DNA of 64,000 nucleotides from Escherichia coli (lineage in GTDB: Bacteria; Pseudomonadota; Gammaproteobacteria; Enterobacterales; Enterobacteriaceae). Numbering within the stretch: the first letter of the stretch is position 1; the number at the start of each line of letters is the position of its first letter. Below the pieces are notes generated by a model. The model was not told the origin of the DNA. It worked only from the letters and a program-made list of their open reading frames with translations, and ran no database searches. The stretch is from NCBI RefSeq assembly GCF_041886205.1, contig NZ_CP169029.1; one strand, written 5' to 3'. Shown one piece after another: positions 31,391 through 31,722 of this stretch. The translations under genes were made by a program, and so were the position numbers.

Positions 31391-31475
31391 TCCTTTGTCC
31401 TCTTTGGGGTAAATGTCCCTTTCAACATCATTGACTTTCAAATGCGAGTCAAATGCATTTTTTTGCAAAAAGTGT

Positions 31476-31508
31476 TGGACAAGTGCGAATGAGAATGATT
31501 ATTATTGT
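31476..31508 (+). promoter_or_regulatory. ryhB promoter with Fur box
   Basis: AT-rich gaatgagaatgattattattg immediately upstream of the RyhB 5' end resembles the Fur-box repeat consensus; the -35-like ttggac precedes it. Confidence 0.65.
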
Positions 31509-31511
31509 CTC

Positions 31512-31601
31512 GCGATCAGGAAGACCCTCGCGGAGAACCTGAAAGCACGACATTGCTCACATTGCTTCCAGTATTACTTAGCCAGCCGGGTGCTGGCTTT
31601 T
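31512..31601 (+). ncRNA. ryhB: Iron-responsive small RNA RyhB
   Basis: Sequence GCGATCAGGAAGACCCTCGCGGAGAACCTGAAAGCACGACATTGCTCACATTGCTTCCAGTATTACTTAGCCAGCCGGGTGCTGGCTTTT matches remembered RyhB, ending in a GC hairpin plus T-tract, in the yhhY-yhhX intergenic region. Confidence 0.9.
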
Positions 31602-31722
31602 TTTTTGATCTTTCGTTCTCAATTTATCCACGGGAGTGCTTGTGTTCGTTATGCGCACTCCAGTAGGAACCACGTCCGCTTTGCGCTAAGGTGTAAATAA
31701 CCACCTTAATAAGGACGAAATC

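Follow-up and report, generated by a model that had tools for sequence, protein, structure and literature searches.

The targets of the small RNA RyhB include sodB, sdhCDAB, acnB, bfr, ftnA, isc and others, and cirA and shiA are among the targets that it activates instead of represses. The 3′ poly-U stretch is the usual site for the proximal face of Hfq. In other Enterobacterales, RyhB has homologues and paralogues, such as RyhB-1 and RyhB-2 in Salmonella and RyhB1 and RyhB2 in Yersinia, while the RyhB of Vibrionaceae is a longer RNA that has only the core in common. PrrF1 and PrrF2 of Pseudomonas and IsrR of Staphylococcus are also sRNAs repressed by Fur, and they in turn repress the mRNAs of iron-containing proteins; they are functional analogues of RyhB, non-homologous in sequence and placed in different RNA families. 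One review deals with the homologues and paralogues of RyhB in other Enterobacterales (PMC4211561). RyhB itself has been described as an RNA expressed under iron limitation that acts with Hfq and RNase E on about 50 targets, mostly mRNAs of non-essential iron proteins, with shiA activated, and Hfq has been described to bind the U-runs of terminators (PMC4666370).

The DNA analysed here is a 64-kb stretch from E. coli (hereafter the window), for which the original prediction had placed an intact RyhB on the + strand between yhhY and yhhX. The gene-free gap between these neighbours, put at about 330 bp in that prediction, measures 332 bp, and the order and orientation of the two genes are as in K-12. 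A scan of the whole window on both strands with 4227 Rfam families, each at its gathering threshold, returned a sole match, to RyhB (RF00057) at 31541-31605 on the + strand, with 83.1 bits, the gathering score being 55, and an E-value of 3.6e-14; the alignment is full length (model positions 1-67 of 67) and not truncated. Thus, the RNA family model, on whose verdict the original prediction had staked itself, scores the region well above its cutoff. The model spans only the 3′ two-thirds of the RNA, and the ends of the gene were set from the annotation of K-12 MG1655, in which ryhB (b4451, RF00057) is a 95-nt ncRNA between yhhX and yhhY (Table 1). MG1655 and the window agree at every base of promoter, Fur box, RNA and terminator (100% identity), and an alignment of the entire intergenic region 31391-31722 has 331 of 332 positions identical, the lone difference being a T for A at 31710, near the ribosome-binding site of yhhX and far outside ryhB. 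Differences between the window and K-12 lie only outside the element, among them this position, the yhhY allele and the yhhZ-yrhB island.

We regard it as almost certain that the 332-bp interval is the E. coli ryhB gene itself and not merely something RyhB-like. This identification rests on the Rfam score, the core, the terminator, the Fur box, synteny, identity to b4451 and complementarity to sodB, each of which was found, and the sequence holds nothing against it. Judged by the same sequence features, the ryhB of the window is an already known textbook regulatory RNA, with nothing new in the element, and its expression, Fur dependence and Hfq binding in this strain would be expected from its identity with K-12.

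Table 1. Positions of the ryhB locus, its neighbours and further reading frames in the window
Feature	Position	Strand	Remarks
yhhY (N-acetyltransferase), divergent upstream neighbour	30902-31390	-	162 aa, internal ATG of a 188-aa mechanical ORF
ryhB promoter, -35 hexamer TGGACA	31476-31481	+	consensus scan; identical to K-12
ryhB promoter, -10 hexamer TATTAT	31500-31505	+	ends 6 nt before the K-12-annotated 5′ end at 31512
Fur box GAGAATGATTATTATTGTC	31491-31509	.	16/19 to the 19-bp consensus GATAATGATAATCATTATC, match on the - strand
ryhB small RNA gene	31512-31606	+	mapped from K-12 b4451, 95 nt, 95/95 identical
ryhB, classical 90-nt form	31512-31601	+	K-12 coordinates mapped to the window
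Conserved 27-nt core GCACGACATTGCTCACATTGCTTCCAG, target-pairing region	31545-31571	+	exact in at least 120 loci of other species
RyhB nt 38-46, GACAUUGCU	31549-31557	+	perfect complement of K-12 sodB mRNA, -4..+5
Rho-independent terminator	31580-31606	+	stem-loop 31580-31598, then U-tail 31599-31606
yhhX (oxidoreductase), same-strand downstream neighbour	31723-32760	+	as in annotated E. coli genomes
RyhP ORF	31552-31581	+	ATT start, IAHIASSIT*; intact in the window, function doubtful
Mechanical ORF, 95 aa	31413-31700	+	six-frame listing
Mechanical ORF, 53 aa	31505-31666	+	six-frame listing
Mechanical ORF, 34 aa	31449-31553	-	six-frame listing
Mechanical ORF, 31 aa	31578-31673	-	six-frame listing
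PsyrTA pair, first ORF	36947-39043	+	698 aa; PADLOC PsyrT, 1057 bits
PsyrTA pair, second ORF	38950-40245	+	431 aa; PADLOC PsyrA, 660 bits

The core of the RNA has two copies of a 9-nt direct repeat, ACATTGCT(C). When one genome per prokaryotic species was scanned for exact matches to the 27 nt, the core was found in at least 120 loci spanning Enterobacterales, Aeromonadaceae and Vibrionaceae. The genera represented include Citrobacter, Enterobacter, Klebsiella, Yersinia, Serratia, Pantoea, Erwinia, Photorhabdus, Xenorhabdus, Dickeya, Pectobacterium, Hafnia, Aeromonas, Zobellella, Photobacterium, Aliivibrio and Salinivibrio. The RyhB homologues and paralogues of other Enterobacterales share with the window this exact core, a Fur box upstream of it and a terminator that is rich in GC and comes straight after a short U/A-rich linker. 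In their 5′ portions they are unrelated or divergent, and many of these genomes have two copies at different loci, whereas E. coli has one. In Vibrionaceae, the shared features are the exact core and a Fur-box-like site (15/19) some 60-70 nt upstream. However, several Photobacterium and Aliivibrio loci have no terminator T-run within 80 nt past the core, or have one at 59, which is consistent with a longer transcript. The element in the window is a true RyhB and not an analogue of the PrrF or IsrR kind. As a separate observation, two RyhB-core loci occur in many genomes of Yersinia, Photorhabdus, Serratia, Pantoea, Pectobacterium, Hafnia, Mixta and Acerihabitans among the matches listed, and the Salinivibrio costicola locus and one further locus each have two core copies in tandem, about 300 bp apart.

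Within the core lies the stretch that is complementary to sodB. The window is without sodB, and the mRNA sequence was taken from K-12 (NC_000913), where positions -4..+5 read AGCAAUGUC, the AUG included; 9 nt is the longest exact complement between the two RNAs. A duplex restricted to the seed reaches -18.0 kcal/mol, against -9.1 ± 2.6 kcal/mol for shuffled sequences, of which 4 in 1000 were as good. The exact-complement search and this seed-restricted duplex took over from an unrestricted RNAduplex run of the whole RyhB against sodB -60..+30, which was rejected: it ignored intramolecular structure and returned an unrealistic 69-nt duplex, matched by 30 of 500 shuffles. The core also varies in one E. 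coli genome, that of strain 23AR0151, a clinical isolate from human sputum (NZ_CP195448.1 310636-311078), which has three and not two copies of the 9-nt seed repeat ACATTGCTC; this natural RyhB variant, whose target-pairing core is longer by a 9-bp tandem expansion, aligns to window positions 31550-31566.

One may argue that the conserved core has a second role as a coding sequence, since in EHEC Neuhaus et al. (2017) reported ribosome footprints on a nonapeptide, RyhP, in the ryhB RNA and an effect of its overexpression on competitive growth (PMC5331693). According to this proposal, the ryhB RNA is also translated and the peptide has its own role under iron limitation. The frame is present here, and its translation matches the published MAHIASSIT (PMC5331693), but its start is the non-canonical ATT, the Shine-Dalgarno sequence is weak, and the frame sits in the seed, where base pairing suffices to account for the conservation. 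Moreover, core and TAG are joined by a linker whose length is variable in most other Enterobacteriaceae (ATTA-CT-TAG, ATTACTT-TAG, ATTACTTTTATAG), so that the TAG falls out of frame, and neither frame nor stop is conserved outside Escherichia; the open frame shifts there from 12 codons to 16-25 or more. Independent confirmation of RyhP was not found in the literature consulted. We therefore consider a dual function improbable, though it is compatible with the main reading as RyhB and, if true, would confirm the 2017 proposal (PMC5331693) and not constitute a discovery.

Returning to ryhB as a regulatory RNA, its promoter is the single sigma-70-like site found by a consensus scan of 31300-31800, with 10 of 12 consensus matches and an 18-nt spacer; promoter and terminator, each located by a scan of its own, stand at the distance that one would expect. 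The AT-rich, Fur-box-like element that had been noticed upstream of RyhB also held up under measurement, with 16 of 19 positions agreeing with the Fur consensus. It is the only site with at most three mismatches in the 64 kb, and none of 100 dinucleotide-preserving shuffles yielded such a site. The box spans -21 to -3 and covers the entire -10 hexamer, and a Fur box over the -10 hexamer is the classic layout for repression by occlusion. The range first proposed for the locus, 31440-31610, does bracket promoter, gene and terminator, but the ~35 bases with which it opens (31440-31475) precede the -35 hexamer, and their membership in the element finds no support. Near this stretch, a direct repeat, TCAAATGC, at 31438 and 31449 was considered and rejected, as it is short, has two copies and shows no conservation outside Escherichia. 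The association of Fur box and core extends well beyond E. coli: when the 130 nt upstream of each core were compared with 590 random 130-nt segments from the same loci, a Fur box of at least 15/19 was present in 85% of the 116 usable RyhB-core copies listed and in 1% of the controls, and the best upstream match averaged 15.6/19 in these copies and 10.2 in the controls.

At the other end of the gene, the terminator is intact as had been predicted, with its stem at 31580-31598 and the T-run to 31606. It follows the core and a short linker, so that the RNA ends 35 nt past the core, and it consists of a stem of seven pairs, five of them G-C, with a loop of five, after which come eight more T's (TTTTTTTT, 31599-31606), nine in all. 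RNAalifold on 31 Enterobacteriaceae orthologues returned 15 pairs and no compensatory change, as core and terminator do not vary at all over so short a distance. In a more distant set of 25 sequences, however, the stem does covary: column pair 42:54 of the terminator is A-U in 11, C-G in 8 and G-C in 4 sequences across genera, which amounts to compensatory changes. In addition, 89.7% of the stem cells are paired, compared with 30-53% when the register is slid, and the covariation score was reached by none of 500 shuffles. The minimum free energy of the single sequence 31512-31605 is not unusually stable (z = -0.59), and such an unremarkable value is usual in a short sRNA whose seed is open. 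The same scan for terminators flagged a second, weak terminator-like hairpin on the + strand at 31629-31644. Also downstream of the ryhB terminator, in the leader region of yhhX, lies a 10-nt inverted repeat, ACGGGAGTGC / GCACTCCAGT (31630-31639/31655-31664, 15 nt apart), which was set aside as a candidate, not being conserved beyond E. coli.

To what extent the gene is preserved within E. coli was assessed in 5426 complete genomes, of which 5424 carry the 332-bp interval, always on the chromosome and at a median of one place per genome. In 5394 of these 5424 genomes, the 135-nt segment of promoter and gene reaches an identity of 99% or more. Two of the 5426 genomes are without a match to the interval, and a few carry two or three copies of it (5429 places in the 5424 genomes). 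Across genera, the window was compared feature by feature with E. albertii, a divergent Escherichia, Citrobacter, Enterobacter and Pseudocitrobacter: promoter and Fur box are 94-100% identical, ryhB 88-100% and the flanking coding sequences about 75-98%, whereas the spacer between the terminator and yhhX is less than 55% alignable outside E. coli and rich in indels between genera. This profile of conservation fits an RNA gene with a regulated promoter.

The same profile bears on the possibility that the Fur box and promoter chiefly serve yhhX, with the RyhB-like stretch being an iron-regulated yhhX leader transcribed by read-through of the terminator. Such an arrangement is suggested by the position of yhhX, which begins 117 bp past the terminator and runs in the same direction as ryhB, and an early consensus prediction by Vassinova and Kozyrev did assign these Fur sites to yhhX (PMC2189734). 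Chen et al. (2007), however, described this as a mis-assignment and attributed the Fur site cluster of K-12, at 25.2 bits and confirmed by gel shift, to position -15 of ryhB, not to yhhX (PMC2189734). Furthermore, a strong intrinsic terminator with compensatory changes separates the promoter from yhhX, the spacer behind it is poorly conserved while ryhB is conserved, and RyhB cores with Fur boxes occur in unrelated contexts in many genomes, also in two copies. A yhhX leader is thus very unlikely. Least credible of all, with next to no chance of being right, is the reading that the interval encodes a small protein from one of the four mechanical ORFs in its six-frame listing, which was rejected since no Pfam family comes close (best E 0.27, with 11.5 of the 27 bits required), the lengths of the ORFs over the core are not conserved but vary erratically from species to species (12-97 aa), the ORF of 95 aa extends across the terminator and the spacer behind it, which is not conserved, and K-12 and RefSeq annotate no protein in the interval.

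With the locus read as ryhB, the following mechanism can be proposed, in which the regulatory steps are carried over from work on K-12, where the sequence is identical. The sigma-70 promoter at 31476-31505, with its -10 hexamer inside the Fur box, would direct transcription from G31512, and the transcript would be an RNA of 90-95 nt ending at the GC-rich hairpin and U-tail (31580-31606). When iron is plentiful, Fe2+-Fur on the box is expected to block RNA polymerase; when iron is scarce, Fur would depart and RyhB, stabilised by Hfq, would accumulate. Hfq on the U-rich 3′ end probably promotes pairing, in which the single-stranded core (31545-31571) would engage mRNAs for dispensable iron proteins at their translation-initiation regions. 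Pairing would then block ribosome binding and recruit RNase E, so that mRNA and sRNA are degraded together. The predicted outcome is an iron-sparing response, in which non-essential iron-using proteins are shut off when iron is scarce.

The seemingly empty 332-bp interval is therefore fully explained by a known regulatory RNA. As the original prediction had remarked, this known element is invisible to an ORF track, and the RefSeq/PGAP annotation of non-K-12 E. coli is also without a feature in the interval: among the RefSeq/PGAP E. coli genomes, no match listed has a feature under ryhB, which appears only in the curated K-12 record. With thousands of RefSeq/PGAP E. coli records lacking a ryhB feature, ORF and PGAP tracks will keep flagging this gap unless Rfam is added.

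The surroundings of ryhB offer several further observations. From nikA to malT, the full length of the window is colinear with the chromosome of E. coli LHM10-1, at 99.88% identity and without gaps. In K-12, a 3.4-kb island lies between yhhY and ggt (yhhZ-yrhA::IS1E-yrhD-yrhB), comprising yhhZ, a putative endonuclease, yrhA, which is interrupted by IS1E, yrhD and yrhB. This island is absent from the window, where the stops of ggt and yhhY are only 60 bp apart (30842-30901), as in LHM10-1. The yhhY of the window is 81.8% identical to that of K-12 in nucleotides and 85% in amino acids, yet its first 32 codons are identical to K-12, and yhhX and yhhW are 98% identical. Because the divergent part of yhhY abuts these identical first 32 codons and the ryhB intergenic region, the alignment suggests a recombination breakpoint inside yhhY, adjoining the island indel.

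Farther downstream, a PsyrTA-type anti-phage defence or toxin-antitoxin pair lies on the + strand between gntU and yhgN (36947-40245), with Pfam domains of a DEAD/Helicase_C RecQ-like helicase and of DNA_processg_A (DprA-like) with SLOG. E. albertii and a divergent Escherichia genome lack the segment 36807-40293, which is thus accessory. In addition, a tetratricopeptide-repeat protein, annotated in LHM10-1, is encoded on the + strand at 22618-23364 between livF and ugpB, in a region (22500-23495) that does not align to other genera. Finally, 51946-54935 on the + strand, between glgP and glpD, encodes an intact PstS-family substrate-binding protein and two hypothetical proteins according to the LHM10-1 annotation.
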